Positions 22,765 through 45,826 are shown, counted from the stretch's first letter. The stretch: DNA of 64,000 nucleotides from a candidate division WWE3 bacterium (GCA_030619715.1 JAUXAW010000002.1:1221-65220); one strand, 5' to 3'. Notes: generated by a model not told the origin, from the sequence alone. Numbers and translations: made by a program.

Positions 22765-22853
22765 GGAGGAGTAGCCAAGTGGTCATACGGCGCCGCTCTC
22801 GAAAAGCGTGCGGGTGAAAGCCCACGTGGGTTCGAATCCCACCTCCTCCGCCA
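22765..22853 (+). tRNA. tRNA-Ser (anticodon CGA)
   Basis: Loop ctCGAaa, long variable arm gggtgaaagcccac, T-loop ttcgaat, CCA. Preceded by small hairpin tccgccaaaggcgga. Confidence 0.8.
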
Positions 22854-27551: not shown

Positions 27552-28619
<1,068 letters not shown>

Positions 28620-28776
28620 CTCTCCCCAAGTTAGGAAGTTAGGTGATGCCTATTCTGTTTCTGTGGTTTTGCGTCAAATACTTCAGCGCTATGTAGTGCT
28701 AAATAATTCGTCAATTTTTACACCGAATGTTGCCGGTTGCTTTTGGTTCCTTTTTATGATATAAAAGAAAATGCGT

Positions 28777-28819
28777 TCCGCGGTAGCTCTCCGCCAGCTG
28801 GCGGAGGTAGAGCGAAGGC
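28777..28819 (+). pseudogene. partial duplicate of the tRNA-Asn 5' half (acceptor-D-anticodon stem) carrying a 16-nt palindromic insertion in the D-loop
   Basis: tccgcggtagctc[tccgccagctggcgga]ggtagagcgaaggc(atgtt) versus the genuine tRNA-Asn tccggggtagctc[aat]ggtagagcgaaggc(ctgtt) at 29062. The GIY-YIG start codon sits where the anticodon loop would be. Confidence 0.6.
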
Positions 28820-29071
28820 ATGTTCGAAGTGTACGCTATTTACAATAGAAAGAATGACAAGATATACATAGGGCAAACAAGGGATTTGGAGGCGAGGTTA
28901 AAGGCTCATAATGATGGGAGATTTACTAACTCTTATACGGCGAGGTTTGACGGCGGGTGGGAATTAATTTATAGTGAGCCAAGCCGGACCCACGCCCAAG
29001 CTTTAAGGAGGGAGAAGCAATTGAAGAGTTATAGAGGTAGGGAGTTTATTAAGCAACACATTCCGGGGTAG
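28820..29071 (+). CDS. GIY-YIG nuclease family protein (small stand-alone URI domain)
   Basis: MFEVYAIYNRKNDKIYIGQTRDLEARLKAHN (GIY...YIG...R..H/N). 83 aa. Stop codon overlaps the first bases of tRNA-Asn. Confidence 0.85.
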   Translation: MFEVYAIYNRKNDKIYIGQTRDLEARLKAHNDGRFTNSYTARFDGGWELIYSEPSRTHAQALRREKQLKSYRGREFIKQHIPG

Positions 29072-29136
29072 CTCAATGGTAGAGCGAAGGCCTGTTAAGC
29101 CTGCGGTTGAGAGTTCGAATCTCTCCCCCGGAGCCA
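29062..29136 (+). tRNA. tRNA-Asn (anticodon GTT)
   Basis: Acceptor tccgggg/ccccgga, loop ctGTTaa, T-arm gagagttcgaatctctc, CCA encoded. Short D-loop. Confidence 0.85.
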
Positions 29137-29190
29137 AACCCTTTAGAATGGCGTGATTACGCCATTTTCTTGTTTTGTGATAAGATTGAT
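29130..29190 (+). repeat. junction site F0: tRNA-Asn 3' end GGAGCCA core plus aaccctttaRaatggcgtRRYtacgccRttttcttgttttgtg arm; also at 33289-33345 and 34475-34540
   Basis: Three copies read directly. Arm contains hairpin ggcgt..acgcc plus T-run (terminator-like). Followed within 15-25 nt by a gene start in two of the three copies. Confidence 0.6.
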
Positions 29191-29193
29191 GCA

Positions 29194-29946
29194 ATGGGGT
29201 TCAAGCTATTGATCTTCGATCTTGACGGAACGGCTGTGCCTAACAAACCGGACGGGCTGCCTTCTGAGGCGGTTATCGGTGCGGTGGAGAAGGCAAAGAA
29301 ATTTGTTGAGGTCAGTGTAGCAACAGGTAGAGCTATTACCATGGCCCGACCGATCCTTAAAAAGTTCAACCTAACCTCTCCGTGCATCATCTCTGGTGGA
29401 ACACAAATCATCAATCCACAAACAGAAGAAACATTGTGGGAGAAAAGATTATCAAAGCATCAGGTTGAGAGAATAATCCAAGTTTGCTTTCCGTACCATT
29501 ACGAAATTCTGTTTGCGGAAGAGACCAACGGTTCTTCAGCAAAAGAAAAAAACGTCGTGGGGTCAGAGAGAATCGTGTATATCATGAACGTTGAAGAGGG
29601 GGATGATCATAAGATGCTAAGGGAATTAGATGAGCTAGATGAGGTGGCAGCCTACGGAGTTAAATCTTGGACTAAGGGTTGTACCGATATCCATGCTACT
29701 CACAAACAAGCCACAAAGAAGTACGCCATGAAGACTTTGTTAGAAATGATTGGGGTGGACAAAGAGGCAGTACTTTGTGTGGGTGATAGTACTAACGATT
29801 TACCGCTCTTTGAAACATCCGGCTTTAAGGTGGCAATGGGGAACGCGTCCGAAGAGATCAAGCAGCTTGCCGATTACATCGCCCCTTCAGTAGAAGAAGA
29901 TGGGATGGTGGAGGTTATAAATAAACTCATCGTCTCGAAGCGGTAG
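29194..29946 (+). CDS. HAD-superfamily hydrolase (Cof-like)
   Basis: MGFKLLIFDLDGTAV (DxDGT motif I). Later VGDSTNDLPLF (motif IV). Confidence 0.8.
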   Translation: MGFKLLIFDLDGTAVPNKPDGLPSEAVIGAVEKAKKFVEVSVATGRAITMARPILKKFNLTSPCIISGGTQIINPQTEETLWEKRLSKHQVERIIQVCFPYHYEILFAEETNGSSAKEKNVVGSERIVYIMNVEEGDDHKMLRELDELDEVAAYGVKSWTKGCTDIHATHKQATKKYAMKTLLEMIGVDKEAVLCVGDSTNDLPLFETSGFKVAMGNASEEIKQLADYIAPSVEEDGMVEVINKLIVSKR

Positions 29947-30122
29947 CTAGTTCCAGCTCCATCCCCTACACAAATCTTGCCAAAGCGGGTACCGATGTTC
30001 TATCTTTGACAAAATAGGTTCGAAGTTCCGCCTCGGTTTCGCCCACGGCGGGACGGATTGTACGACCGGGGCCACCCCCTTCGCCAAGGCTTCGGAGGGC
30101 AAGCCCCTCCCGTCACATATTG

Positions 30123-30150
30123 CCACCCCCACCCCAAAATCTGATACAAT
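30123..30150 (+). promoter_or_regulatory. cassette promoter module Mp (ccacccccaccccaaaatcTGataCAAT), partial copy
   Basis: Extended -10-like TGATACAAT lies 10 nt before the SDR start. Same module at 32407-32470 and 39402-39465. Confidence 0.5.
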
Positions 30151-30159
30151 AATCGTACG

Positions 30160-30900
30160 ATGGCAAAAACAGCTTTAGTTACTGGTGTTTCTCGAGGAAT
30201 TGGTCGAGCAATTGCTAAAAAATTAGCGAGTGAAGGCTATTTTATTCATGGAACTTACAATACTGGCAAAAAGGAAGCTGAGGAGTTAAAAAAGGAAATT
30301 AAAAATATCGAGATTTACCAAGCTAACTTCAGACATAGAAAACAAACCCAGCAGTTGGTAGAAAAACTAAAGGAGATTAAATTTGACGCTTTGGTTAACA
30401 ATGCAGGGGTTTTCCAACTTGAAGATTTTGATAATTATGATTTTGAGATTTGGGATAGTACCTTTGAGATAAATCTTAATGCTATTTTAGTTATTTGTTT
30501 AGGATTGAAAGATAACATTAGAAAGGGTGGGGCGATTGTTAACATTACAAGCACAGATGGGATGACCGGCTCCTTTGGGGGAATGGCATATTCAGCGAGT
30601 AAAGCAGCATTGATAAACCTGACAAAGAGTTTGGGTAACAATTTTGGACCAAAAGGTATTAGGGTTAACGCAATAGCTCCGGGGTGGGTCAATACCGATA
30701 TGGACACTGAGGTTGTAGGTGATGCTCCCGGCCTAACTCCCTTAGGAAGAAATGCTAAGCCGGAAGAAATTGCGAACGTTGTAAGTTTTTTGCTTTCCGA
30801 TGGGGCTAGTTTTGCCAACGGCGCCACTTTCGTTATTGACGGAGGTTATACCAACGTTGACCCCATTATGAAGAAGGAGGCGGAATTGGAGAAAAAATGA
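30160..30900 (+). CDS. short-chain dehydrogenase/reductase (SDR)
   Basis: TGVSRGIGRAIA (TGxxxGIG). YSASKAA (YxxxK). 246 aa. Confidence 0.85.
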   Translation: MAKTALVTGVSRGIGRAIAKKLASEGYFIHGTYNTGKKEAEELKKEIKNIEIYQANFRHRKQTQQLVEKLKEIKFDALVNNAGVFQLEDFDNYDFEIWDSTFEINLNAILVICLGLKDNIRKGGAIVNITSTDGMTGSFGGMAYSASKAALINLTKSLGNNFGPKGIRVNAIAPGWVNTDMDTEVVGDAPGLTPLGRNAKPEEIANVVSFLLSDGASFANGATFVIDGGYTNVDPIMKKEAELEKK

Positions 30901-31865
30901 AGATTACTGTTTTGTGCCCCAAATTAGAATTTACCAAAGCTCAACAGGAAAGATTAGCGAAGCTCGGTGAGGTTGTTTATACCGACAGCAGGCAAGAGTA
31001 TCCAACGGAAGAACTTATTAAATTAGCCAAAGGCTCCGAGATTTTAGGTGCAGACCCGGACAATTTAGGCGGCTTTGAGAAAGCTAAGCCAGAATTGACC
31101 AAACTAATGGAAAGCCTACCTAAGCTTCAGGGAGTGGCTCTAGCTTCAAGCTCATTTGAATGGATTGATTTAGCTTATTGTCGAAAAAGGAGAGTCGTAG
31201 TAACGAGTGTTCCCCACTACTCAACGGAGTCAGTTGCTGAACACGCTTTAGGACTAATGATTTGTTTAGCGAAAAACATTATTATCAATGATCGAAAATT
31301 TTGGTCAGGCGAGGAGAGTAAGTTTGGTTCGGGCCCTGGTTTTGAGTTGAAGGGAAAAACGCTGGGAGTGATTGTTCTAGGGAACATTTGAAGTCGAATA
31401 GCTGAACTGGGTCAAGCAATAGGTATGAGGGTTATCGCGTATAATCGGACCCCAAAAAGACAGAAGGGAGTTGAGATGAAATCTCTAGATAAAGTTTTGT
31501 CAGAATCTGATGTGCTTTCAGTTAACCTTGCCTGTAACAAAGAAACCTATCGCTTTATTTCAGAACAACAGATTAGAAAAATGAAAAAAGGAGTGGTTAT
31601 TGTTAATCTAGTCGGTCCTGTTACACCAGATAGAGAAGTGGTTGACAAAAAAGCCATGGCCAGAGCTCTTGGGGCGGGTATAGTAGCGGCCTATGCTTAT
31701 GAGGCCGAGGATCTGACAAATAATCCGCTGTCTAAGATTGAGAATGCGATTGGTCTAAAAGGTTTTGCGTGGTACACAAAAGACGCTTTAGAACGGGCAA
31801 AAGAAATTTGGACTGACAGCATTATTTCGATTGCCAAAGGAAGTCCCATCAACGCAGTAAGCTAG
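30897..31865 (+). pseudogene. D-isomer-specific 2-hydroxyacid dehydrogenase interrupted by a single in-frame TGA (31389-31391) at the first Gly of the NAD-binding GxGxxG motif
   Basis: ORFs 30897-31391 and 31425-31865 are in the same frame. Read-through gives ...GKTLGVIVLGNI[TGA]SRIAELGQAIGMRVIAYN..., i.e. G-N-I-[G]-S-R-I. The paralog at 35521-36420 has IVGKGSIGTKIA. Confidence 0.6.
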
Positions 31866-31873
31866 GCTGTAGT

Positions 31874-31910
31874 CATACAGGCGTTCCGAACATCGTTTGC
31901 GATTCGGAAG
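31874..31910 (+). repeat. junction site C (degenerate): catacaggcgttccgaacatcgtttgcgattcggaag
   Basis: Aligns with site A at 32319-32356 (catacaggcgttccagacatcatttgcgatgcggagcca). Confidence 0.45.
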
Positions 31911-32038
31911 TCTTATTCGCTACCGCAGATGAGATGATTGTAGAAAGCGCAAGGTAATTATTTTAGTTTGCGCTATTTGTAAGCTTGATTTTTAAATGTG
32001 TTATTGTTATTAAAGTAATGAGAAGGAGGTGATAAATA

Positions 32039-32155
32039 GTGGCAAAAACAAAAACTTCTACCTACGGTAAAAAGAAGCAGAAAATTGTACCGGTTCGCCG
32101 TTACAAAAGAGGTGGTAAGTGGGTTAGAGGGCATAGACGCTCTACACCAAATTAA
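32039..32155 (+). CDS. candidate 38-aa highly basic protein (VAKTKTSTYGKKKQKIVPVRRYKRGGKWVRGHRRSTPN)
   Basis: GTG start 9 nt downstream of a strong SD (agaaggaggtg). Below the ORF-track cutoff. Lies in a cassette junction region. Confidence 0.35.
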   Translation: MAKTKTSTYGKKKQKIVPVRRYKRGGKWVRGHRRSTPN

Positions 32156-32273
32156 TAATAAATGCTTATTTTTGAAAAAGACATGGAGATTTTATGCAAT
32201 ATAAAGATTTTAAAATTGTGAAGTGGACTAATGGATTTCAGTTAGCTCCAGGGAGCTGAGGCGGTCTTCTATT

Positions 32274-32360
32274 GGAACTGGATCCAAATTTGGAAATCTG
32301 ATATAGTCTTCCGTGGATATACAGGCGTTCCAGACATCATTTGCGATGCGGAGCCATCCT
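32274..32360 (+). repeat. junction site A: X-type left arm (gaactggatccaaatttggaaatctgatatagtc...) + gatgcGGAGCCA core + tccttcttcgcc right arm
   Basis: Left arm is about 85% identical to 37666-37731. Core at 32350-32356. Confidence 0.6.
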
Positions 32361-32378
32361 TCTTCGCCAAAGATTTGT

Positions 32379-32404
32379 GCGGCCTTCGGGCCGCTTTGTT
32401 TTTG
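32379..32404 (+). terminator. cassette terminator module Mt (gcggccttcgggccgc + tttgttttt)
   Basis: Perfect 6-bp GC stem, 4-nt loop, T-run. Near-identical copies at 36476-36502, 37758-37786, 41425-41451. Confidence 0.7.
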
Positions 32405-32406
32405 CT

Positions 32407-32470
32407 GCGGAGACCCCACCCCCACCCCAAAATCTGATACAATGACCACACGCGGAGGCGAGGAAAAATG
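32407..32470 (+). promoter_or_regulatory. cassette promoter/5'UTR/start module Mp (gcggagaccccacccccaccccaaaatcTGataCAATgaccacacgcggaggcgaggaaaaATG)
   Basis: 62/64 identical to 39402-39465, which supplies the ALDH start codon. Here the module ATG opens only a 13-codon uORF (MSDEKYLKLGIKT) before the nitrilase ATG. Confidence 0.55.
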
Positions 32471-32512
32471 AGTGATGAAAAATATCTTAAACTTGGCATC
32501 AAGACTTGAAAG

Positions 32513-33265
32513 ATGGATAAATTTAGAGTAGCAGCGATTAATGCTGACCCCGCTAAGCCGACAGAGAGTTATCTTAGGAAGGTAAAAAGCCTAGATTGCA
32601 AATTAATTTGCTTCCCTGCTTACTATCGGAGAAATGAAAATTTGCCTGAAATGACTCGACTGGCTAAGGCTTATAAAACCTACATTCTGGCCGGTATTGA
32701 TGAGGTAAATAGCCGGAGCGGTTATAAAAGTGTCTTTCTTTTCTTCCCAGATGGGAAGAAAAGGAGACTTCATCGAAAAACAATTCTTGCCAATTTCGAG
32801 AAAAAAGATGGGTTTAGAGAAGGGAAAAGTATCAAAGTTTTTGCGTCGCCTTTTGGTAAAATCGGTGTTTCCATTTGTCTTGAGAGTTGGTATCCAGAAA
32901 CCCCGCGGATCCTGGCTTTAAAAGGAGCAGAGATCATTTTTGCCCCTGCCGGATTTGGAATGAAGAAGGGCCTGAAGTTTGACTTTTATGACAATTGGCG
33001 GGATATGCTCAAAATTAGGGCGATCGAGAATCTAGCCTACGTCATTTGTTGCACCAATGCGGTTGGTGAGAAGCCATTGGGGGTAATTATTAATCCAGAG
33101 GGCCGGATTTTGGCCGAAAGGATGGGCGAGGGGATTGTTACTACCACAATTAGCCTTAAGTGGGTAAGAAAAATGAAGACAGGCGATTATGAGGAGAGAA
33201 TCGCCGCCAAGATTCGTTTGGAGAAGAGACAACCTGGGTTGTATAGAGATCTAATTAGGAAGTAG
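32513..33265 (+). CDS. carbon-nitrogen hydrolase (nitrilase superfamily)
   Basis: E-K-C triad context: ...RKTIL..FEK... and GVSICLESWYPE (catalytic Cys in the C-[EW] motif). 250 aa. Confidence 0.75.
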   Translation: MDKFRVAAINADPAKPTESYLRKVKSLDCKLICFPAYYRRNENLPEMTRLAKAYKTYILAGIDEVNSRSGYKSVFLFFPDGKKRRLHRKTILANFEKKDGFREGKSIKVFASPFGKIGVSICLESWYPETPRILALKGAEIIFAPAGFGMKKGLKFDFYDNWRDMLKIRAIENLAYVICCTNAVGEKPLGVIINPEGRILAERMGEGIVTTTISLKWVRKMKTGDYEERIAAKIRLEKRQPGLYRDLIRK

Positions 33266-33288
33266 CTCTCAACTAATAATTTCAGGAT

Positions 33289-33345
33289 TGGAGAGCCAAA
33301 CCCTTTAAAACGGCGTAACTACGCCGTTTTCTTGTTTTGTGGTAA
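33289..33345 (+). repeat. junction site F1: ggaGAGCCA core + tRNA-Asn-downstream-type right arm
   Basis: gagccaaaccctttaaaacggcgtaactacgccgttttcttgttttgtggtaaaattggtct precedes the MBL gene start. Confidence 0.6.
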
Positions 33346-33354
33346 AATTGGTCT

Positions 33355-33939
33355 ATGGCAAAAGTTAAAGTTCTGATCGAGGGTTACGCAAAAGAAATCA
33401 AGGGCGGGTGGTTGGCTAGTTCAACCACGACTCTCATTCGGGATCGGGGTTTAAACATCGTCGTCGATCCGGGTAAGAACAGGTCACTTCTACTCCAGAA
33501 ATTCAAAGAAGAAAACCTCAGACCCGAAGACACCGACTTTGTCTTAGTGACACACACCCACCTCGACCACAGTTATCTACTAGGTATTTTTCCTAACGCC
33601 AGGGCCTTAGATGATGAGGTCGTTTACGATCAGGACAAAGAAGGCGAGCATGGCGGAACCATTCCCGGAACGGCTATTAAAATTATCTCTACTCCCGGCC
33701 ACGACCAGTTTCACAGCTCGCTCGTCGTTCCGACCGAAAAGGGAACTGTGGTTGTTGCTGGCGATGTCTTTTGGTGGGCGGACAACGAGGAGCAAAAGAC
33801 AGACGAAACGAGTTTATTAGAACGCAAAGACCCATTCGTCAAAGACGAGAAGGCTCTGCTTGAGAGTCGTAAAGAGGTTTTGAAAATCGCCGATTGGATT
33901 ATTCCAGGACACGGGAAGATGTTTAAGGTGGAAAAATGA
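33355..33939 (+). CDS. MBL-fold metallo-hydrolase
   Basis: VTHTHLDH (HxHxDH motif). Later GHDQFH, HG. 194 aa. Confidence 0.8.
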   Translation: MAKVKVLIEGYAKEIKGGWLASSTTTLIRDRGLNIVVDPGKNRSLLLQKFKEENLRPEDTDFVLVTHTHLDHSYLLGIFPNARALDDEVVYDQDKEGEHGGTIPGTAIKIISTPGHDQFHSSLVVPTEKGTVVVAGDVFWWADNEEQKTDETSLLERKDPFVKDEKALLESRKEVLKIADWIIPGHGKMFKVEK

Positions 33940-34415
33940 AATTAACAGCTAAACAAATCGAGCTCTTGAAAGAACTAATGATTAACTCTGCAAAGAAGGG
34001 AAATCTTGCCAATTCTGCTATGGTCCTGGAGAACGGCAAGCTGGTAGCTTCGGCCGAGAGTCTGGTTGTTTCAAATCACGATGCGACCGCCCATTCAGAG
34101 AGGATGTTGGTTGAGGAAGTATGCAAAAGGAAAAAGGAAAACTATACCCCGGGTTTAACCATGGTCACAGTTGCTGAGCCTTGCCTGATGTGTATGAGTG
34201 CCTGTGCCTGGGCCGGTTACAAAGAGGTTGCCTATATCATTCCAGCCGAGAAGTACATAGATAAGATTCCGTGGATGGCCGAGACCAAGGGACTCGACAA
34301 ACAGAAAATAGCCAACTCTTTTAGTGAGCCAATTAAGCTAACACACCTGAATCAATACGAAGATGAGTTTAGCGAGATATTTGAACAGGAAATGAAAGGG
34401 CTGTTAGAAGGCTAG
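33936..34415 (+). CDS. CMP/dCMP-type zinc deaminase (nucleoside/tRNA-adenosine deaminase-like)
   Basis: HSERMLVEE (H[AC]E motif). EPCLMCMSAC (PCxxC motif). ATGA overlap with the upstream gene. Confidence 0.7.
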   Translation: MKLTAKQIELLKELMINSAKKGNLANSAMVLENGKLVASAESLVVSNHDATAHSERMLVEEVCKRKKENYTPGLTMVTVAEPCLMCMSACAWAGYKEVAYIIPAEKYIDKIPWMAETKGLDKQKIANSFSEPIKLTHLNQYEDEFSEIFEQEMKGLLEG

Positions 34416-34450
34416 CATCGGCACTACCGCCGAACAAATCTCCTGAAAGT

Positions 34451-34540
34451 AGGTTCCGACGTGTTCAACCACGTGGAGCCAAACCCTTTAAAATGGCGTA
34501 ACTACGCCATTTTCTTGTTTTGTGGTAGAATTGGTCCTGT
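34451..34540 (+). repeat. junction site F2: Y-type left arm (aggttccgacgtgttcaaccacgt) + GGAGCCA core + tRNA-Asn-downstream-type right arm
   Basis: Left arm matches site E (41385-41399). Right arm matches F0/F1. Core at 34475-34481. Confidence 0.6.
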
Positions 34541-34709
34541 AGGTAAAAAACTAGTGGTAAGGTTGATTGTTGCAAGCGATTACGACCTTGACCTGGCATT
34601 ACTTAAAGTTCCTAAGGGAGTAGAGTTGGAATTTTATAAATTATAAAGTAACCATAATTCTATGGTTTATTCGTCAAAATTGTTTCTTAACAGATAAGAA
34701 TAATCAAAA

Positions 34710-35351
34710 ATGGCATTCAAAAGAAACATGAACCAGGAGGAAATGATTAGTTTTATTGATAATGAATTATTTCCTCAAATTAAGAAAGAGATTAAAAATT
34801 GGATTTATCCAAAAAAACAGACTGGTGGATATTTTGCAGTAACCAGGCAAATATTTTGCATGGTTGATTTCTTGGGTGCGGTGTATGCGGGATACCCTTT
34901 AGTGGAAAAGAGAAATGACGAAAGAGGAGAGAAAATTGCTACATCTAAAAAAGCCATAAAGTTCATTACTACGTTTTTTGAGCCGGAAGAAACCTATCAG
35001 CAGGATATTGTAACTAAACTATATAAAATGTACCGCCATGGACTTGTGCATCTCTACCAACCCAAGATTCTAAAATTGGGCTCTAGAAAAAGACTGAAGT
35101 GGTTTTTTTACAGGGGCGCAAGACACAAAGAAGAAATAAAAATAGGGGAAATAGTATTCAAAGATATTAATCATCTTCAGATATACATCGATGAAAATAA
35201 CAGAAAGCACAGCTATCTTGTTATTAGTATTGATTGTCTTTATAAGGACTTTGAAGAGGCAATCAAGCGATATAGGTACAAGTTAGCAAATACAAAGTGT
35301 TTACAAAGAAACTGGCGTACGGCTGTTAATGCTATCTGTAAGCCCCGATGA
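34710..35351 (+). CDS. hypothetical protein in AT-rich (about 37% GC) segment; contains Rx4H (RHGLVH) HEPN-like motif
   Basis: 213-aa ORF. Composition is distinct from neighbours. The motif is the only hint of function. Confidence 0.5.
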   Translation: MAFKRNMNQEEMISFIDNELFPQIKKEIKNWIYPKKQTGGYFAVTRQIFCMVDFLGAVYAGYPLVEKRNDERGEKIATSKKAIKFITTFFEPEETYQQDIVTKLYKMYRHGLVHLYQPKILKLGSRKRLKWFFYRGARHKEEIKIGEIVFKDINHLQIYIDENNRKHSYLVISIDCLYKDFEEAIKRYRYKLANTKCLQRNWRTAVNAICKPR

Positions 35352-35520
35352 AAGTACTAAAGCAAGAGGATGGTTGGACTATTTGAGCTTCTTTTGCTCT
35401 TTGTGTAAAACCTTAACTTGAGTTAAAATATAGGAAAATGAAGATGAGGAGTAATATGAATAAATTTATCAAAAATTTACTAGAGTAATTGCATCCAGTA
35501 TAATTGATAGAAAGGACAAT

Positions 35521-36420
35521 ATGAAAAAGGTTGTAGTATTAGGTGCTAAACCAAACGATGACCAGAAGACGCGATTAGAGGCGTTGGGTGAAGTAAAGTA
35601 TCTTCCAAGTCCGTCTAACTCCGATGAGTTAATGAAGCAGGCTGGAGGAGCTGATGTTCTTTACAGTGATGGTGCATTTTTACTTGAGAGCTTGCCAAAG
35701 TTGAAAAATGTATTTGTAACATATCCATATGTTGAACTTGGAGTTTTTAATTCGGAAGAGTTGAAGAAAAATGGTGTGTTGGTTGCAAACTCTCAAGGAG
35801 GCAATAGACCTTCAATTATTGAGTGGGTAATGTTTATGGTTTTGTCTTTGTTTAGGAAATTCACCCCTATGGTTAGAGCCACAGAAAATTTTCCTGTGGA
35901 GTTACAACAAAGTTTGAGTGGAAAGAAAGTACTGATAGTTGGGAAGGGTAGCATTGGGACTAAGATTGCAATACCTTGTGAGGCTTTTGGAATGGAAGTT
36001 TCATTTTTCGAGCGTGGAGACAATTTACACGCAAAATCTGCAGATGCTGACTTGGTGATAAATTCGCTTAACTGCAACTCTACCAGCAAGAACCTACTTG
36101 ATGAGAAATTCTTCATGTCGCTTAAGAAGGGAGCATACTACATTACATTTGTTAGGCCATATACCTATGATTTGGATGGATTACTAAAATCAATTGACAA
36201 TGGGGTGGTGGCAGGAGCGGCAATTGACTGCGACCCAGAGAAATTTGGGGATACTACAAACGAGTTTTATAAAAAAGCCCTAAGCGATCCAAAAGTGCTA
36301 GTAACCCCCCACATAGCCTTTTCTACTAAACAGGCAATAGTAAATGGTGGAGAAATAGCCGTAAAAAATATTGAGGCTTTCGTTGCAGGTAAACCCCAGA
36401 ATGTGCTAACTAAGAAGTAA
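35521..36420 (+). CDS. D-isomer-specific 2-hydroxyacid dehydrogenase family protein
   Basis: VGKGSIGTKIA NAD-binding motif. Catalytic region ...TPHIAFSTKQA... AT-rich. Paralog of the interrupted gene at 30897-31865. Confidence 0.8.
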   Translation: MKKVVVLGAKPNDDQKTRLEALGEVKYLPSPSNSDELMKQAGGADVLYSDGAFLLESLPKLKNVFVTYPYVELGVFNSEELKKNGVLVANSQGGNRPSIIEWVMFMVLSLFRKFTPMVRATENFPVELQQSLSGKKVLIVGKGSIGTKIAIPCEAFGMEVSFFERGDNLHAKSADADLVINSLNCNSTSKNLLDEKFFMSLKKGAYYITFVRPYTYDLDGLLKSIDNGVVAGAAIDCDPEKFGDTTNEFYKKALSDPKVLVTPHIAFSTKQAIVNGGEIAVKNIEAFVAGKPQNVLTKK

Positions 36421-36437
36421 GCCAGTTCTAACTTCTT

Positions 36438-36502
36438 CCACTACGGGGAGCCATCCTCCTTCGCTAAAGATTTATGCGGCCTGCGGGCCGCTTTGTTTTT
36501 GT
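36438..36502 (+). repeat. junction site D: ccactacggGGAGCCA core + tcctccttcgctaaagattta right arm + Mt terminator
   Basis: Left part resembles site E (ttactacgtggagtca). Right arm resembles site A. Core at 36447-36453. Terminator gcggcctgcgggccgctttgtttttg at 36476-36502. Confidence 0.55.
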
Positions 36503-36625
36503 TCTCACCGACTTGACAAAACTATGAGTTTACGATAGAGTTACCAGTGTAGTACTCAAAACCCTACAAAAGGGGGTATTACAACAAATAAGGGTGGCGA
36601 CCTAACCGCCAGAAAGGGGTGTGAC

Positions 36626-37567
36626 GTGGTAAAGAGATCTTTGTTCACGAGTTTTCCCATTTTAGCAGCGCTTCAGGAGGCCGACAAGTTCATAGCAGGC
36701 GTCCTCTGGGAGGAGAAGCAGGTGAGACCTGAAGGACCTCTCCAGTGGGTTGCCAGCAATGACATGCAGGCCGCCCTGATCGGTCCGCGCATTTGGGGCC
36801 AGACGTTGGCCGCACTGGCTGGCTTTGCAGAAGGGGAAATGTCTTCCATTGCCGACTGGGACGTGGAGGTCATCAACGCCTTCCTACGTGGAGAGGAGTT
36901 TGAGATTCAACTGCGTCCTTGGCCCAAGGAGGATCGGCTCACCTTCGGTATTGCGGCCATCATCAAGCTGCTACGCGAATGGCGCGTCCGGGGAGAGGAG
37001 GGTTACAAGGTGGTCGATTGGCGCAAGGCCTTCCGTCTAGGGGCTCCTGCAGCGCAAGGTGGGGTGGAGTTCTACCGTGCCTCTGGCGAAGTCGTGGTTC
37101 GCATCCCGACCAAGGTTCGTGGCGACTACGTCTGCGTCACTAAGGCATCGGAGCCAAAGACCCACTTTGACCTGCTGTTCTTCTGCATGGATACCCGGAG
37201 TGCGATGGAGCCGACCGACGAGTTCACCGGAGCCATCTTGCCCAACTGGACGTTCCAGGAAGAGGTTGACGTTTCGGATCTCATCAACCTTCGGACGGAA
37301 GACGCCGTTGGCCAGCCATGGTGGCTCGCTCAGGCGCTGATGGAAGGCAAGTCCGCCTTCTGCGCGGAGGGAATTTCCTTCAAGGCTGCCTTCGCCGCCG
37401 CCGTCATGCTCGGTGGGTCTCGGCCGAAGGAACCCGGCCCACGTGACCACGTTGTAGATTACGATTTGGTCATGTGGATCGATCGCGAAGACGTCCCTGT
37501 TCCTTTGGGTGCCGTTTATGTAGCGACCGACGAATTCTCACAGACTGACGTTCGCCTGGAGTGGTAG
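36626..37567 (+). CDS. hypothetical protein, GC-rich (about 60%)
   Basis: 313-aa ORF, GTG start after aaaggggtg. No recognisable motif. Composition suggests foreign origin. Confidence 0.5.
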   Translation: MVKRSLFTSFPILAALQEADKFIAGVLWEEKQVRPEGPLQWVASNDMQAALIGPRIWGQTLAALAGFAEGEMSSIADWDVEVINAFLRGEEFEIQLRPWPKEDRLTFGIAAIIKLLREWRVRGEEGYKVVDWRKAFRLGAPAAQGGVEFYRASGEVVVRIPTKVRGDYVCVTKASEPKTHFDLLFFCMDTRSAMEPTDEFTGAILPNWTFQEEVDVSDLINLRTEDAVGQPWWLAQALMEGKSAFCAEGISFKAAFAAAVMLGGSRPKEPGPRDHVVDYDLVMWIDREDVPVPLGAVYVATDEFSQTDVRLEW

Positions 37568-37583
37568 TCTTGAGGAGTGATTA

Positions 37584-37640
37584 GGGCTAGTATCCACACA
37601 CAAGTTTGACTTGTGGATACTAGCCTGTTTTTGTTTTGAG
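37584..37640 (+). terminator. long palindromic terminator (ctagtatccacacacaag ttt gac ttgtggatactag + T-run)
   Basis: About 17-bp imperfect stem followed by cctgtttttgttttg. Confidence 0.6.
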
Positions 37641-37665
37641 AATTAAGCTGTTAGGGGAACTGGAT

Positions 37666-37738
37666 CCAAACTCGGAAATCTGATATATTCCTCGGTAGCC
37701 ATACAAGTGCTCCGAACGTCGTCCACGATGCGGAGCCA
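37666..37738 (+). repeat. junction site B: X-type left arm + cgatgcGGAGCCA core + gttttgagtttt right arm
   Basis: Left arm matches site A. Right arm matches site E. Core at 37732-37738. Followed by Mt terminator at 37758-37786. Confidence 0.6.
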
Positions 37739-37824
37739 GTTTTGAGTTTTAATAGAAGTGGCCTGCGGGCCGTTTTGTTTTTTCCCCAGAAATTTTTCTT
37801 TACCCTTGTGTTAAAATCTAGACC

Positions 37825-39342
37825 ATGAATGAGGACGAGAAGTACGAGGGAGAAGTTGACTTCGAAGGTGAGAAAGAGGGAATAGGAAAGAAAGTTAGGA
37901 AATTGCCGCCGGCTCCGGTTGCCGCCGCCGTTGTTGTCCTTGTCTTGGCGGGGGTCCTCGGCGGCTATTTTTTATACCAGCGGTATTTTGGGAGAACCGC
38001 TCCGGAGGAAGTTTCTGCACCCGCTACCCAAACCAAAGTTCCCAAATTAGATCCCCAGAAAGAAAAAACCCATCTTTCCAGAGTGGCCGATACCCAAGGT
38101 GCCTACTTTGCCCGAGCCTTCGATCTGTTTTGGGGCGATGTGGAAACCCAAAGAGGGAAATTTGATTGGTCTTTGACCGACGAACAAATAAGATGGCTTA
38201 ACGAGGAGGAGATTTACCCTTTGGTTATTGTCAAACCCTTTGCTCTTTGGGACCAAGAAAGTTGCCACCCGGAGGAAAGATACGAAGCCGAATTTGACCC
38301 CCGGAAAGGCTACCGAATCAAGGTCGGTAAACCTTGCGACCTAATAGCTTTCGGTCAGTTTTTGGAAAAAGCGGTCGAGCGCTACGATGGTGATGGGATC
38401 GAAGATATGCCCGGTCTGACGATTCCGATTAAATACTGGGAGATTATGAACGAGCCGACGATGCAAGGTGGCGTCACCGGCGGGATGGGCGAGGAATTGA
38501 AATTCTTTGTCGGCACCTCTAAGGATTATCTAGAAATTCTCAAAACTTCCTATCAAGCGATCAAAAAAGCCGATCCGGAGGCAAAAGTTCTACACGCGGG
38601 AATGGCGGGGATGGACCGAAACTTTCGAGATTTCTGGCGGCCGGTTTTTGCTCAAGGCGGTGGGCAATATTTTGACATCGCCAATATCCATACCATTTCG
38701 ACCGATCAAAGGAGAGAGGATTTGTTTGTGATCAGGTTCAAAAGATTTTTGCAAGAATTTGGTCTGCAAGGCAAGCCGATCTGGATCACCGAGGTTCAGT
38801 TTGGCCGTCTGGCGGAAAAACCTGAAGATTTAGAAAGTTTTGAGATTTTGGTGACCAAAGCCTCGGTTTTTGCCCTGGCCCAAGGGACGGATAAACTAAT
38901 TTACATCTCAAATTGGACGGACTTTTGGCCCTCCTTCGCCAACCCACTTCGCCAAGGCTACGAGGGTCAAGAGGCTTCGGAGGGTAAGGAAGAAATGAAA
39001 AAGGAGAAGAAATTTAAAGTTAGCCCTGAGGTTTTAGCAAGTTCCACTCACCAAGTTTACCTCAATTTGGTCGATAAGGTTAATCAGTTTGACCGGATAG
39101 AAAAGATTAAGGAGGAGTACATCGAAAATCAGGGCGACCACGATGGCGCCACCTCCAACATTGGGCAGTATAAGTTTGTTTCCGGCGATAAATCGGTTTA
39201 TGTTCTTTGGGGTCAAGCCGAACTTCCCGCGGAAATTTCCGGCCAAGTTAGAGTGACGGATATTTATGGTCAGACAGGGACGATGGACGCCTCTTTAATC
39301 AATCTTTCCGCCGCGCCAATTTTTGTCGAGCCCAGCCGTTGA
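37825..39342 (+). CDS. membrane-anchored clan GH-A glycoside hydrolase (GH5-like)
   Basis: N-terminal TM. WEIMNEP (acid/base NEP). IWITEVQFG (nucleophile TE) spaced as in GH5/GH-A (beta/alpha)8 enzymes. Confidence 0.6.
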   Translation: MNEDEKYEGEVDFEGEKEGIGKKVRKLPPAPVAAAVVVLVLAGVLGGYFLYQRYFGRTAPEEVSAPATQTKVPKLDPQKEKTHLSRVADTQGAYFARAFDLFWGDVETQRGKFDWSLTDEQIRWLNEEEIYPLVIVKPFALWDQESCHPEERYEAEFDPRKGYRIKVGKPCDLIAFGQFLEKAVERYDGDGIEDMPGLTIPIKYWEIMNEPTMQGGVTGGMGEELKFFVGTSKDYLEILKTSYQAIKKADPEAKVLHAGMAGMDRNFRDFWRPVFAQGGGQYFDIANIHTISTDQRREDLFVIRFKRFLQEFGLQGKPIWITEVQFGRLAEKPEDLESFEILVTKASVFALAQGTDKLIYISNWTDFWPSFANPLRQGYEGQEASEGKEEMKKEKKFKVSPEVLASSTHQVYLNLVDKVNQFDRIEKIKEEYIENQGDHDGATSNIGQYKFVSGDKSVYVLWGQAELPAEISGQVRVTDIYGQTGTMDASLINLSAAPIFVEPSR

Positions 39343-39401
39343 TGATTCCGGCCGTTGTGTGTCCAACAGAAATTTATTCACTAGGCCGCTTTGTTTTTGT
39401 T

Positions 39402-39465
39402 GCGGAGACCCCACCCCCACCCCAAAATCTGATACAATGACCGTACGCGGAGGCGAGGAAAAATG
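39402..39465 (+). promoter_or_regulatory. cassette promoter/5'UTR/start module Mp, supplies the ALDH start codon
   Basis: 62/64 identical to 32407-32470. Preceded by a degenerate Mt remnant (ggccgctttgtttttg). Confidence 0.55.
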
Positions 39466-40845
39466 AAATTGAAATCGATCAACCCACACGACCAGTCAGT
39501 AGTTGGGGAATTGAAAATCTCTACCCAGCAAGATGTTAAGAGGGCAGTGAAGAAAGCGAAAAAGGCCTTTGGCCCGTGGCAAGCTTTGTCGGTGGCTGAA
39601 AGAGTTGAATATATTAAAAGATTTAGGACAAAGGTAGCCAAGAACAAGGAGAAGATTGCCAAGCTCACGACACTTGAGATGGGTAAGCCTCTGCAGCAAT
39701 CACTTGACGATGTTAGCTGGGAACTTGAGTTTCTCGATTACTACATTAAAAAGGGACCCGAATACCTAGCTGACGAGACTGTCTACAAGAAAGGGAAAGA
39801 ACATTTTCGAGTAAGTTACGAACCTTATGGCGTTTGTGCCTGTATCGCCCCCTGGAATTTTCCGCTTTCGATGGCCAACTCCGGTGTTATTCCCGCTTTG
39901 ATTGCGGGAAACACGGTCATTCTTAAGCCTTCCGAATACACCAGTCTAAGCCAGAAGATAATCATCGATTTGTTACAGAAATCTAGAATACCCGATGGAG
40001 TCGCCAATCTCTTAATCGGTGGTGGTGAGGTTGGGAAAATGCTCATTGACGAGCCGATCGATCTGGCTTGGTTCACTGGTAGCACTAAGGTTGGTCAGGA
40101 GATTTACAGAAAATGTGGCAAGAAGTTTATCAAAGCGTTGCTAGAGATGGGTGGAAGCAGTCCCGGTATCATTTTCGCCGACGCCAATCTTGATTTAACG
40201 ATGGATAATCTCTACTGGGCCAGGTTTCTAAACTGTGGTCAGGTTTGCACCGCTATCAAGAGACTATTTGTTGAGATGCCAGTTTATAGAAAAGTGGTCA
40301 ATCTTTTCGTAGATAAGCTTAAAACGGTAAAAGTTGGTAACCCAATGGATAAGAAAACCGATATTGGCCCGCTCGTTTCCCAAAAACAACTTAAGTTATT
40401 AAAAGAGCAGGTGGCGGACGCAATTTCTAAAGGAGCAAAAGTAGAGATCGGTGGCAAACAGCCCGAAGGCAAAGAGTTCGAGAAGGGTAACTATTTTGAA
40501 CCCACGGTTCTCACGGACATTACCACAGATATGAGGGTATTTACCGAAGAAACATTTGGTCCTGTACTGCCAATTATCCCTTTTAAGACGGAGGAAGAAG
40601 CAATAAGACTCGCTAACAGAACGGAGTATGGTTTAAGTGCTGAAATTTACACCACCGACCTTGAGAAAGGCGAACGGGTCGCTAAACAAATAGAAGCGGG
40701 TACGGTCGCCATCAACACCGACGATTTCTTCAAGCCAGAATGTCCCTTCGGTGGATACAAGAAAAGTGGGATGGGTAGAGAGTATGGTGAAATTGGAATG
40801 AAGGAGTTCTCACAAGTAAAATTGATCGCTGTTGTTAGACCCTAA
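39463..40845 (+). CDS. NAD(P)-dependent aldehyde dehydrogenase
   Basis: LEMGGSSP (ELGGKSP-type motif). FLNCGQVCTA (catalytic Cys). 460 aa. Confidence 0.9.
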   Translation: MKLKSINPHDQSVVGELKISTQQDVKRAVKKAKKAFGPWQALSVAERVEYIKRFRTKVAKNKEKIAKLTTLEMGKPLQQSLDDVSWELEFLDYYIKKGPEYLADETVYKKGKEHFRVSYEPYGVCACIAPWNFPLSMANSGVIPALIAGNTVILKPSEYTSLSQKIIIDLLQKSRIPDGVANLLIGGGEVGKMLIDEPIDLAWFTGSTKVGQEIYRKCGKKFIKALLEMGGSSPGIIFADANLDLTMDNLYWARFLNCGQVCTAIKRLFVEMPVYRKVVNLFVDKLKTVKVGNPMDKKTDIGPLVSQKQLKLLKEQVADAISKGAKVEIGGKQPEGKEFEKGNYFEPTVLTDITTDMRVFTEETFGPVLPIIPFKTEEEAIRLANRTEYGLSAEIYTTDLEKGERVAKQIEAGTVAINTDDFFKPECPFGGYKKSGMGREYGEIGMKEFSQVKLIAVVRP

Positions 40846-40861
40846 GGATGGGGGAGGAAAA

Positions 40862-41377
40862 ATGAAAGTAATACTTTATGTGGCTACTTCGATTAACGGA
40901 TTAATAACTAAGGGGGAGGATGATTCTGACTGGGTAACAGAAACAGACTGGAAGGAATTTGGCAGTTTGATGAGAGATTGCGGCATTATGGTAATGGGCA
41001 GAAGGACTTATGAAATTTTTGGTGATGATTTCCCTTGCGAGGGGGCGGTTAACGTAGTTATGACTAGCCAAAGGAAATTGTTGGGCCAAGAGACCTCAAA
41101 GGATGTAATCTTCACAGACAAAACTCCCAGGGATGTTGTAAAGATGGCGGAAGAAGAGGGATTCAAAAAATTAATGCTTATTGGGGGTATGAAGCTTAAT
41201 ACTTCCTTTTTCGAGGAGGATTTGATCGATGAAGTCTGGCTTAGTGTTCACCCACTTCTGATAGGTAACGGCAAGATGATTATGGATAAGATTAATTATG
41301 ATAGAAAAGTAAAACTACTCGGCATTAAGGAGTTAGATGAGGGTCTAGTCCAACTCCGTTACGAGATTGTAAAATAG
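40862..41377 (+). CDS. dihydrofolate reductase family protein (RibD C-terminal domain-like)
   Basis: MKVILYVATSINGLITKGEDDSDW...MGRRTYE is typical of the RibD_C/DHFR-like family. Confidence 0.7.
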   Translation: MKVILYVATSINGLITKGEDDSDWVTETDWKEFGSLMRDCGIMVMGRRTYEIFGDDFPCEGAVNVVMTSQRKLLGQETSKDVIFTDKTPRDVVKMAEEEGFKKLMLIGGMKLNTSFFEEDLIDEVWLSVHPLLIGNGKMIMDKINYDRKVKLLGIKELDEGLVQLRYEIVK

Positions 41378-41384
41378 GTTCCGA

Positions 41385-41451
41385 CGACGTTTACTACGTG
41401 GAGTCAGTTTTGAGTTCTGAAGAGGCGGCCTGCGGGCCGCTTTGTTCTCGC
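41385..41451 (+). repeat. junction site E: Y-type left arm (aggttccgacgacgtttactacgt) + GGAGTCA core + gttttgagttctg right arm + Mt terminator
   Basis: Core at 41400-41406. Terminator ggcggcctgcgggccgctttgtt at 41425-41451. Confidence 0.55.
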
Positions 41452-41502
41452 CGTTGGTCTTTATGGTAGAATGAGTAGAGCAACGTTTGGGGGTGATTAA
41501 AG

Positions 41503-41691
41503 ATGGTTAAATTTTACAGCGTTCAGATAAAAGACCACGTTGAGGTCGATGAGAGCGAGGTCGAAGTGGTGACGATGGAAAACGGCCGCAAGGCGGCTAA
41601 GGCCGAGGTGGTCAGAGACGGCAAGACCCTCAAGCTGTTCAAATTCTTGTCCGAGGAGGATGCCCAGCGCTTGTCTGGAGCCAGTGAATGA
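41503..41691 (+). CDS. small acidic hypothetical protein (62 aa)
   Basis: Good SD (gggggtgattaaagATG). Forms an apparent bicistron with the following small ORF. Confidence 0.4.
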   Translation: MVKFYSVQIKDHVEVDESEVEVVTMENGRKAAKAEVVRDGKTLKLFKFLSEEDAQRLSGASE

Positions 41692-41705
41692 GGAGGTGAT
41701 TCTAA

Positions 41706-41885
41706 ATGATGGGAATGCATTTTGGCCATTTTTGTAAAGATCTTGAGTGTGAAATCGAGAACCAAGGAGGTAAGCTAGTGATTACTCTCTCAGGGGATGC
41801 TGAGAAGATCGCTATGGTGGAAAGAAAGCTTAAGGCCTTAAAAGAGCTTTGTCACTGCGGGGAGGAAGGTGGTGGCTGTTGTTGA
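41706..41885 (+). CDS. candidate 59-aa Cys/His-rich protein (MMGMHFGHFCKDLECEIENQGGKLVITLSGDAEKIAMVERKLKALKELCHCGEEGGGCC)
   Basis: Strong SD (tgaggaggtgattctaaATG) 14 nt after the previous stop. Below the ORF-track cutoff. Confidence 0.4.
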   Translation: MMGMHFGHFCKDLECEIENQGGKLVITLSGDAEKIAMVERKLKALKELCHCGEEGGGCC

Positions 41886-41921
41886 CGGCTGGGTTTGGAG
41901 TTTGGTATAGTTAGATCACGG

Positions 41922-44079: not shown

Positions 44080-44122
44080 TTACCTTTCGGCTCTAGTGTT
44101 CGGATAAAATCACACACGGGGA

Positions 44123-44932: not shown

Positions 44933-44938
44933 TTTTGC

Positions 44939-45640: not shown

Positions 45641-45826
45641 CTTCTCAATACTACCATAATGAGGGTTTACTTTTCTTGTCCTTCGTGTTAGAATGTGACC
45701 CGTTGTCTGTGTTTGTGAGGTTTTCTTTCGACTCCGGCAAGGTTTCCAGCCCCTAAGGTCTCCGAAGAACTCCCGCATTAGATGTTTTTAATTTTTCAAA
45801 CAAAGTTTGAGAGGTGGTGAAAGAAA

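Follow-up and report, generated by a model that had tools for sequence, protein, structure and literature searches.

A strain-variable array of small accessory gene units behind tRNA-Asn in a candidate division WWE3 bacterium, and the tRNA-end heptamer at its junctions

Gene content and junction modules of the array

We have analysed a stretch of 64,000 nucleotides from an uncultured member of the Patescibacteria, a candidate division WWE3 bacterium (GCA_030619715.1, JAUXAW010000002.1:1221-65220), referred to as the window, and in particular an array of accessory genes that lies behind a tRNA-Asn gene; the closest named relatives by RpoD belong to candidate division WWE3, at about 70% identity. 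The array is flanked on the left by dnaG (25773-27545) and rpoD (27552..28619), both on the plus strand and assigned by Pfam, the latter through its sigma-70 regions, and on the right by a convergent operon for an ABC-2 permease and its ATPase (44123..45778, minus strand; Pfam). About 20 array genes stand in between, all on the plus strand and transcribed away from tRNA-Asn(GTT) (29062..29136, plus strand; ARAGORN, Rfam tRNA 69.4 bits), and most of their junctions carry the heptamer GGAGCCA or a close variant of it, the primary copy being the final 7 nt of the tRNA itself (29130-29136). A preliminary description had confined the array to 29062-41502. The array is indeed found there, but the true variable region is larger, as inferred from blastn against two sister strains, represented by two contigs encoding RpoD at 99% identity (L081, GCA_030602025.1; L082, an 11.7-kb contig of ENA ERZ3612382 that is also found in Logan SRR5716304). 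The match to the sister strains stops at 28619, divergence starts directly past the rpoD stop codon, and the variable region extends over about 15.5 kb to the stop codon of the ABC permease gene (28620-44120).

Exact copies of the heptamer stand at 29130, 32350, 34475, 36447 and 37732, as first described, and the variant GGAGTCA is located at 41400-41406; the site listed at 33291 is, however, not an exact copy, its core being GGAGAGCCA (33290-33298), a 2-nt insertion variant (GGAG[AG]CCA). The claim that the heptamer separates every gene block holds for most junctions but not for all, as the core at 30068 reads GGGGCCA, that at 31905 is broken (CGGAAGT) and the boundary at 39384 is coreless. 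Three further GGAGCCA copies inside the array fall within open reading frames (ORFs), and since the 11 copies counted in the window are not above the chance expectation of 8.7, the signal lies in the context around the heptamer and not in its count. Indeed, the pattern G[CT]TC[CT]-N10-34-GGAGCCA has only four matches in the window on either strand, all of them at array junctions, and a profile made from eleven 35-nt elements finds no match outside the array in the window, the next best having an E of 0.19. All junction cores, in the window and in L082, are on the plus strand; 7-12 nt of the tRNA-Asn 3' end are repeated at at least six window junctions and at six in L082, and the heptamer is preceded by 1-5 bases that agree with one or the other tRNA-Asn 3'-end type of the clade, CCCCCGGAGCCA or CCCGGGGAGCCA. 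In the L082 contig GGAGCCA occurs 7 times for 1.13 expected, a count reached in 0/200 shuffles. The core and arm modules were not found in about 100 other loci examined, except as copies of the same species' array, and a genome-wide scatter of the repetitive extragenic palindrome (REP) or bacterial interspersed mosaic element (BIME) type is not matched, no copy of the element lying outside the array within the window. In the window and these other loci the modules are confined to the array, and they do not behave as a motif that is spread uniformly over the genome, which the preliminary description had named as the opposite outcome.

Repeat finding carried out independently recovered all the arm families of that description, all of them within 29.1-41.5 kb. 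To the left of the core stands an element of about 35 nt with the consensus AAAnAGGTTCnAACnTCGTCnACnACGnGGAGCCA and a T-loop-like GTTCS motif; X and Y arms both belong to this one family, as its two branches. The X arm, present in two full copies (32274 and 37656; 78%) and a partial one (31875), has about 50 extra nt 5' of the shared element, cut to varying extents by the upstream gene, and the Y arm is present in three copies (34446, 36418 and 41371). This 3' element starts at or just past the stop codon of the preceding gene, with the stop codon inside the element in two cases. The stretch from GTTCS to GGAGCCA resembles the T-loop-to-CCA part of tRNA-Asn, with a distance from GTTCS to the CCA end of 29-30 nt in all cassette elements as compared to 24 nt in every tRNA-Asn allele.

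To the right of the core follows one of four unrelated modules, named F, T1, T2 and P. The F arm, in three copies (29130, 33292 and 34475), comprises a terminator hairpin and then TGTGGTAAAAT 8 nt upstream of the start codon; T1 and T2 comprise a GC-rich terminator hairpin with a T-run and then a predicted promoter; P comprises TGATACAAT followed by a Shine-Dalgarno (SD) sequence and ATG. Repeat finding and a terminator scan both return the four reported copies of the terminator module GCGGCCTKCGGGCCGC with its T-run (32379, 36476, 37758 and 41425), and the promoter module CCACCCCCACCCCAAAATCTGATACAAT is likewise found three times (30123, 32416 and 39411). The order within a unit is terminator, promoter, gene or genes and 3' element, the first two being predicted. 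Upon alignment of the junctions the arm-swap pattern holds, with at least four unrelated left-arm types (the tRNA, X/Y, an arm Z and the 3' end of the nitrilase gene) and four right-arm types meeting in at least eight combinations at one heptamer.

Since the 3' element lies on the sense strand between stop codon and terminator and resembles a tRNA T-loop and CCA end, it could be a tRNA-like signal in the 3' untranslated region (UTR), kept by selection for mRNA processing or stabilisation, and arm discordance would then be a by-product of independent neighbouring modules; the 5' GGTTCC, moreover, pairs with GGAGCC only via G-U wobble, which would favour RNA over DNA pairing. As the main explanation such an RNA-level role is nevertheless unlikely, and we leave it only a slim chance. 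The fold is not conserved, its z-scores over the 13 sites folded being mostly unremarkable (+1 to -2.5 as a rule, but -3.2 at one site and -5.7 at another), no 5' strand is available for an acceptor stem, and Rfam gives no match besides the real tRNA. The motif is also absent from the 3' ends of about 45 genes outside the array and is thus not a general expression signal, and the presence/absence and reordering of units between strains would be left unexplained. Two related ideas were abandoned in the course of the work: a tRNA-like or riboswitch reading of the X and Y arms, as Rfam at E up to 5 matched true tRNA only, and a conserved attC-like or REP-like hairpin as defining feature, as a core-containing hairpin is found at about half of the sites.

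Read from left to right (all features on the plus strand), the tRNA is followed by the F0 right arm (29137..29193), with a terminator hairpin at 29145-29168 and an extended -10-like TGTGATAAGAT just upstream of the start codon of a HAD-family hydrolase gene (29194..29946; Pfam Hydrolase_3, E 3.9e-39). The junction at 30010..30159, recognised by its repeats and homologous to L082 junction 7154, combines a AAATAGGTTCGAAGT Y-type arm bearing a GC-rich insertion, the variant core GGGGCCA (30068-30074), a TTCGCCAAGGCTTCGG repeat and a P module (30123-30159), and leads to an SDR gene and a 2-hydroxyacid dehydrogenase pseudogene (30160..31865; Pfam), the latter split in two ORFs (30897-31865). A partial X arm with a broken core, GATTCGGA running into AGTCTT (31866..31920; repeat, alignment and a profile match of 17.1 bits), precedes a small-gene cassette (31921..32273; blastn 95.6% to L082 8171-8559) with a 38-aa basic ORF at 32040-32156, whose protein has exact copies on contigs L091 and L092. 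Junction A is made of an X left arm with GGAGCCA (32274..32356; repeat) and of a T1 right arm (terminator 32379-32394) that continues into the P promoter, SD and ATG (32357..32471; repeats and terminator scan). The segment that follows (32468..33265; blastn and Pfam) holds a deaminase 5' remnant and a CN-hydrolase (nitrilase-family) gene: the remnant is a 13-codon stub (32468-32512) fused to the P module ahead of the nitrilase gene and homologous to the L082 deaminase start (blastn, L082 7153-7244 to window 32408-32499), and the CN-hydrolase is without the N-terminal part of its domain, its Pfam match beginning at profile position 63. Junction F1 (33266..33354; repeats and L082 comparison), with a unique left arm, the GGAGAGCCA core and an F right arm, precedes an MBL-fold hydrolase gene and a deaminase gene (33355..34415; Pfam), the MBL being common to L082 (93.9%).

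Junction F2 (34446..34540; repeats and Logan contig L094) joins a Y left arm to an F right arm over the core at 34475-34481, and after it stand a 213-aa gene of no assigned family (35% GC) and an intact 2-hydroxyacid dehydrogenase gene (34710..36420; Pfam, PHROGs and NCBIfam scans). In junction D (36418..36541) a Y-like left arm and the core at 36447-36453 are followed by a T1 terminator arm and a putative TTGACA-17-TAGAGT promoter, ahead of a 313-aa gene of no assigned family by family and PDB sequence searches (36626..37567, 59% GC). Past this gene and upstream of the next X arm, a near-perfect long hairpin GGGCTAGTATCCACACACAAGTTTGACTTGTGGATACTAGCC with a T-run (37584-37626) may be a cassette-specific terminator. 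Junction B (37656..37784; repeats and terminator scan) has an X left arm, the core at 37732-37738 and a T2 right arm with terminator. The 505-aa gene behind it (37825..39342), which holds an in-frame copy of the TTCGCCAAGGCTACG repeat encoding ..LRQGYEGQ.., is a possible TIM-barrel glycosidase on the basis of a sub-threshold GH42 match (E 5.5e-4). The coreless junction (39384..39466) consists of the 3' half of the T1 terminator and a P module, being an 83-nt copy, 96% identical, of 32389-32471, and opens onto ALDH and RibD_C/DHFR-like genes (39463..41377; Pfam), the latter ending in a TAG stop codon within the Y arm. This is the left arm of junction E (41371..41451; repeats and L093), where the GGAGTCA core is followed by a T2 right arm. 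The array is completed by a 62-aa gene common to L082, a 59-aa ORF, a CBM96 protein gene and a 399-aa gene of no assigned family (41503..44079; Pfam and blastn), the block from about 41700 onward being strain-specific.

With regard to this cargo, Pfam bears out the HAD, SDR, 2-hydroxyacid dehydrogenase, CN-hydrolase, MBL, deaminase, ALDH and RibD_C assignments proposed beforehand, one of the two 2-hydroxyacid dehydrogenases being split and the other intact, but the 'GH5-like' one is unproven; the composition is heterogeneous, as had been noted, with gene GC from 35% to 59%. Independent Logan contigs of the window's own strain contain the same junctions F1, F2 and E, on which ground an assembly artefact was rejected.

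Other repeats were observed in and around the array. The repeat TTCGCCAAGGCTWCGGAGG(GCAAG) is found beside stop codons and cores (window 18111-18143, 30074-30106 and 38942-38974; L082 9017-9045) and seems to be a relative of the T1 right arm; outside the array, at 18091, a stop codon is followed by a T1-like piece CCATCCTCCTTCGC without heptamer. Small palindromes rich in GC, CCGCC-N3-10-GGCGG in form, are found in intergenic DNA of the window (19891, 20358, 46623, 50578, 52018, 61377 and 62717) and are also inserted in a Y arm (30029-30060), in an X arm (L082 8588-8606) and in the D-loop of the pseudo-tRNA described below; from their sequence they look like a miniature hairpin insertion element.

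Strain differences and the tRNA-Asn anchor

The flanks of the array are syntenic in L082, rpoD being 97% and the ABC genes 93.6% identical at the nucleotide level (the latter to L082 9091-10600 by blastn), and the rpoD-ABC interval measures 7.9 kb there as compared to 15.5 kb in the window. All 12 array genes of L082 read away from the tRNA, and its junctions are built from the same X, Y, F, T1, T2 and P modules together with the new left arm Z. The cargo is mostly different, comprising an aldo-keto reductase, an Ldh_2 protein, a cold-shock protein, a second deaminase, a glyoxalase and unassigned genes. In L082 the tRNA-Asn is directly followed by an F arm and the MBL gene, whereas the window has 4.16 kb between two F copies, an insert that carries the HAD, SDR, 2-hydroxyacid dehydrogenase, 38-aa and nitrilase genes. 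Homology resumes at the variant core, window 33290 corresponding to L082 1226, from where junction F1 is, to the right, orthologous to the tRNA/F junction of L082: the left arms of these two junctions are 47.5% and the right arms 95% identical. The same is seen at junction E and L082 8618, with 25% identity in the left arm and 95% in the right one; for the 62-aa unit, a match of 91.6% identity begins at the first core base and extends to the right (window 41400, L082 8618), the unit having a T2 arm in both strains and a left arm that is Y in the window and X in L082. Conversely, the 38-aa unit has an X arm in both strains and a right arm that is T1 in the window and T2 in L082, and it stands ahead of the MBL gene in the former and after it in the latter. 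The MBL gene is in turn followed by the deaminase gene in the window and by the aldo-keto reductase gene in L082, the switch occurring at an ATGA overlap, and the arm and 5'UTR of junction D match L082 4624-4776, there ahead of an unrelated gene. The two arrays are thus far from the full synteny that would have spoken against a cassette array: they vary at the level of the cassette, with homology breaks at the heptamer. The shared units are 92-96% identical, about as diverged as the flanks, which suggests that they were inherited vertically while units were now and then gained, lost or reordered.

Strain L081 has no array and no modules in the 6 kb past its tRNA-Asn, and neither array nor modules are present in relatives with 81-88% RpoD identity (L083, L086 and L099). 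A DnaG scan of the genome collection gave only relatives at 45% identity or less, metagenome and viral scans with the module patterns gave no match or chance matches only, plasmid and phage BLAST gave no match, and exact-protein look-ups returned only the same two array types. In one relative, L086 (83% RpoD identity), rpoD is followed by neither a tRNA-Asn nor a GGAGCCA array, and its accessory genes are separated by three copies of the palindromic AATACTTCAGCACTATGTAGTGCTGAAGTATT (11082-11118, 12277-12328 and 13819-13871); a degenerate copy of AATACTTCAGCACTATGTAGTGCTGAAGTATT type lies directly past rpoD in the window (28655-28722). In the upstream part of the window, a segment with tRNA-Ser/Arg genes (21956-22853) is inverted with respect to L081 4954-5830 (93% identity, opposite strand), so that the upstream tRNA cluster is also rearranging.

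The tRNA-Asn itself differs between the strains. Three different tRNA-Asn(GTT) bodies are found (window 29062-29136, L082 1158-1234 and L081 11108-11181) next to rpoD DNA that is 92-97% identical; their acceptor ends are the same, their D, anticodon and T arms differ, and all terminate in GGAGCCA. With three bodies among near-identical strains, the tRNA itself seems to have been replaced along with downstream DNA. In the window its 5' end is overlapped by the 3' end of a small GIY-YIG domain gene (28820..29071, plus strand; Pfam PF01541, E 2.6e-15) that is absent from L081 and L082, and the ATG of this gene abuts a degenerate duplicate of the tRNA-Asn 5' half (28776..28822, plus strand; from reading the sequence), in which the D-loop is replaced by the 18-nt palindrome TCCGCCAGCTGGCGGAGG. 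The layout of pseudo-5'-half, GIY-YIG gene and tRNA-Asn (window 28776-29136) recurs in a distant Patescibacteria genome, L097 (GCA_041650875.1, 11474-11836), and is absent from both sister strains; the GIY-YIG unit could be a mobile or homing-type unit that targets tRNA-Asn.

Recombination at the tRNA end and the candidate recombinase

A stretch of 7 bp is too short for homologous exchange of the RecA type. Given that at least eight arm combinations meet at a heptamer that is the tRNA end, and that the strains break there, site-specific recombination is the best explanation, and the preliminary reading of the arm combinations as its footprint is supported by both the arm discordance and the heptamer breakpoints against L082. 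The crossover is placed inside the heptamer by two broken cores, that of the partial X arm (X', 31905, ..TTCGGA/AGTC) and that of arm Z in L082 (3676, ..TAGGGGG/CTAG), together with the 2-nt duplication in F1. As for the proposed 'integron or tRNA-targeting-integrase style', tandem integration at a tRNA site with a recombinase acting in trans fits better, the junctions not being attC sites. We therefore favour serial site-specific recombination at the tRNA 3'-end core by a recombinase encoded elsewhere, a reading that in our judgement has an even chance of being correct.

According to this proposal, the rpoD-ABC interval would be a strain-variable array of small co-oriented accessory units anchored at tRNA-Asn. 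At its 5' end each unit would carry a module in which a terminator insulates it from upstream transcription and a promoter follows, and at its 3' end a mimic, about 35 nt long, of the T-loop-to-CCA end of tRNA-Asn, finishing in GGAGCCA. Units would be gained, lost and reordered by conservative site-specific recombination with crossover within the heptamer, the primary chromosomal site being the tRNA 3' end, and as each inserted unit would bring an extra copy of the site, the array would grow in tandem. The recombinase would lie outside the array and act in trans, the most concrete candidate being the large serine recombinase family found at the same tRNA; ordinary decay and non-core recombination would be superimposed, with truncation of genes and re-use of promoter modules.

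In agreement with the earlier statement that the window holds no integrase or transposase, no recombinase domain is found by Pfam in the 49 of its ORFs that were scanned, and tblastn with three serine recombinases reveals no integrase remnant in the array; the unassigned cassette proteins yield no recombinase with PHROGs and NCBIfam, and neither does a PDB sequence search with the 313-aa protein. In L081, the CCA of tRNA-Asn is directly adjoined by the gene for a large serine recombinase of 513 aa, the first gene of an island that also holds HTH, methylase and Mrr-like genes, and homologues with 63-69% identity are found at tRNA-Asn in L096, again beside rpoD-dnaG, and in L097. Islands with recombinases of about 500 aa thus stand at the tRNA-Asn CCA in three Patescibacteria lineages (L081 11119-17088, L096 1-11518 and L097 1-11503), with the 3' end of the recombinase ORF overlapping the tRNA on the opposite strand and with their far end not within the 10-kb flanks. 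In the sites of serine integrases the distance of the zinc-ribbon motif from the centre is 5 bp shorter in attB than in attP (PMC3783163). The GTTCS offset, from 24 nt in the tRNA to 29-30 nt in the arms of the cassettes, corresponds to this shift; the right half-sites are without convincing symmetry and, as X and Y arms share ancestry, the constant GTTCS spacing may simply be inherited. The case for the serine recombinase family as the acting enzyme is suggestive only.

A recombinase island at the very same tRNA in L081 also agrees with an origin of the array as fossil tandem islands, in which islands or prophages bearing integrases entered tRNA-Asn serially, each leaving a displaced tRNA 3' fragment, and have since lost their integrases and most of their genes, so that the array would be a graveyard of units that are immobile today. 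In support of it, islands classically target tRNA-Asn, the array contains pseudogenes and gene stubs, and three tRNA-Asn bodies in three strains are expected if elements replace part of the tRNA; indeed, Prochlorococcus islands show partial-tRNA repeats that arose from serial integration (bioRxiv 10.1101/2020.12.28.424599). However, at least eight integrations per strain by related elements would be required, each trimmed to 0.4-4 kb and yet keeping promoter and terminator, and the fragments are not decayed pieces of tRNA but a propagated family of about 35 nt with a constant spacing of 29-30 nt, against 24 in the tRNA. In addition, no integrase remnant is left, all genes are co-oriented and the order of the units is permuted between the strains, and we thus regard this origin as fairly improbable.

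A number of observations weigh against serial site-specific recombination as we propose it. The comparison comprises two arrays (window and L082) and one island strain (L081), and no circular junction, excision product or empty site was observed. Recombinases are absent from the window and from the 11.7-kb L082 contig (Pfam; tblastn with the three serine recombinases), and since canonical serine integrases pair attP with attB only, tandem growth would need an enzyme of relaxed specificity. Dyad symmetry around the core is at null level, except at the Y/F junctions, and a hairpin with the core as its 3' strand is predicted at about half of the 13 sites folded. Furthermore, some boundaries are not at a core, namely that at 39384 inside the terminator, the MBL ATGA overlap and the left end of the 38-aa unit in L082; breakpoints recur at start codons, P preceding the SDR gene, the ALDH gene and a deaminase gene; and T1 with its promoter and 5'UTR (83% over about 180 nt) stands ahead of unrelated 313-aa and 137-aa genes. 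Finally, the split 2-hydroxyacid dehydrogenase, the truncated nitrilase and the deaminase stub correspond to decay and not to clean cassette exchange. Start-codon breaks, a coreless boundary and truncated genes indicate that decay and non-core recombination also shape the array, and both the fossil islands and an exchange by homology keep real weight.

In the latter case, homologous or illegitimate exchange after DNA uptake would proceed without a dedicated recombinase, units being swapped through double crossovers in the conserved modules (promoter, terminator and 3' element) or in the rpoD and ABC flanks, as in Neisseria minimal mobile elements and 'mobile promoters', and the heptamer would be the conserved end of the 3' modules. 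This would account for the same promoter/5'UTR modules (P; T1 with promoter) ahead of unrelated genes with breaks at the start codon, for the coreless boundaries (39384 and the ATGA overlap after MBL) and for a variable region whose two ends coincide exactly with the stop codons of the flanking genes, and in the relative L086 the accessory genes past rpoD do have another intergenic repeat, a palindromic one, between them. It is difficult to reconcile, however, with new arm combinations that need crossovers within 7 bp, between arm families that are unrelated or about 60-70% alike, with a heptamer that terminates four unrelated left-arm types, the tRNA included, and with three sites broken inside the heptamer (31905, L082 3676 and the 2-nt duplication at 33290), and it leaves unexplained how unrelated genes first got the modules. 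We consider exchange by homology alone improbable.

Relation to known systems and biological meaning

By analogy, the closest working likeness is to tandem tRNA islands with partial-tRNA repeats, of which the Prochlorococcus tycheposon is an example, and to composite islands of the staphylococcal cassette chromosome (SCC). In the tycheposon islands, partial-tRNA repeats result from serial integration (bioRxiv 10.1101/2020.12.28.424599). As in tandem tRNA islands (Islander, tycheposon), a hypervariable, strain-specific region lies 3' of a tRNA with repeats of the tRNA 3' end between blocks, newcomers displacing older blocks outward, the cargo is metabolic and a recombinase element resides at the same tRNA in a sister strain. 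An intact tRNA at one end and repeats of its 3' part at the block boundaries are present, as is presence/absence polymorphism bounded by repeats (window against L082), but an integrase within the island is found neither in the window nor in the L082 contig. In contrast to those islands, the repeat has only 7-12 nt instead of the usual 15-50 nt and lies inside a 35-nt mimic with altered spacing, and the units, of 0.4-4 kb, are co-oriented and have their own terminator and promoter from a few reusable families, with no integrase or remnant thereof.

SCC composite islands of staphylococci join SCCmec with pseudo-SCC units that are devoid of ccr, the Ccr enzymes being large serine recombinases. 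The likeness lies in recombinase-less units set apart by short direct repeats that copy the 3' end of one fixed target gene; SCC units owe their mobility to a large serine recombinase that acts in trans and is relaxed as to the site pairs it joins, and to this extent the likeness is here a proposal. Unlike in SCC, the target is a tRNA rather than rlmH and the units are much smaller. In pdif modules of Acinetobacter plasmids, XerC/XerD act in trans on 28-bp 11-6-11 dyads of alternating orientation. Here too modules are bounded by short sites for a recombinase that would be encoded elsewhere and arms are shuffled between modules, but there is no dyad and all sites have the same orientation; a Xer/pdif site or the core site of a tyrosine recombinase was rejected on account of dyad-symmetry scores at null level and cores that are all on the plus strand. 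Mobile promoters, lambdoid phage module junctions and Neisseria minimal mobile elements exchange DNA between conserved flanks. They resemble the array in having near-identical promoter/5'UTR modules ahead of unrelated genes and differ from it in that, here, a constant heptamer equal to the neighbouring tRNA end joins unrelated modules.

Integrons, and the clusters of attC sites lacking integron-integrases (CALINs), are similar in being one-way arrays of small unrelated accessory genes with a recombination site directly at the 3' side of every gene, in some cases overlapping the stop codon, with a 7-nt boundary core, species-specific site families and a content that varies between strains. Unlike in integrons, there is no intI, attI or Pc, the core is GGAGCCA and not GTTRRRY, and the anchor is a tRNA; on reading the sequences we find no R''-L''/L'-R' imperfect palindrome, and short hairpins are found at about half of the sites. 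The promoter-like and terminator modules also set the units apart from typical integron cassettes, with which co-orientation and strain variation are shared. Given the missing intI and attI, sites that are not built like attC, and units with promoters of their own, we do not count the locus among the integrons. It is possible, though doubtful, that the array belongs to a distinct, integron-like and previously undescribed cassette system of Patescibacteria with the tRNA-Asn 3' end as fixed insertion site. Its cassettes would be self-expressing (terminator, promoter, gene) and would use the tRNA-end mimic of about 35 nt as recombination site, and their insertion, excision and reordering would fall to a large serine recombinase, or to some other enzyme, whose gene lies elsewhere, with the tRNA in the attB-type role and the cassette arms in the attP-type role.

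Provided that the spacing of attB/attP type is borne out, a multi-site serine-integrase platform for genome engineering may be obtained from these sites together with the recombinase family next to them. The locus also offers a second and simpler case for the question of cassette origin that is posed by integrons, that is, how unrelated genes gain the same recombination and expression modules. Patescibacteria have tiny genomes with few recognised mobile elements, and the routes by which they gain genes are poorly understood. If our proposal is true, it would describe a cassette system that is independent of an adjacent integrase, and a concrete mechanism of accessory-gene turnover by which metabolic genes that are ready to be expressed are swapped between near-identical Patescibacteria strains.

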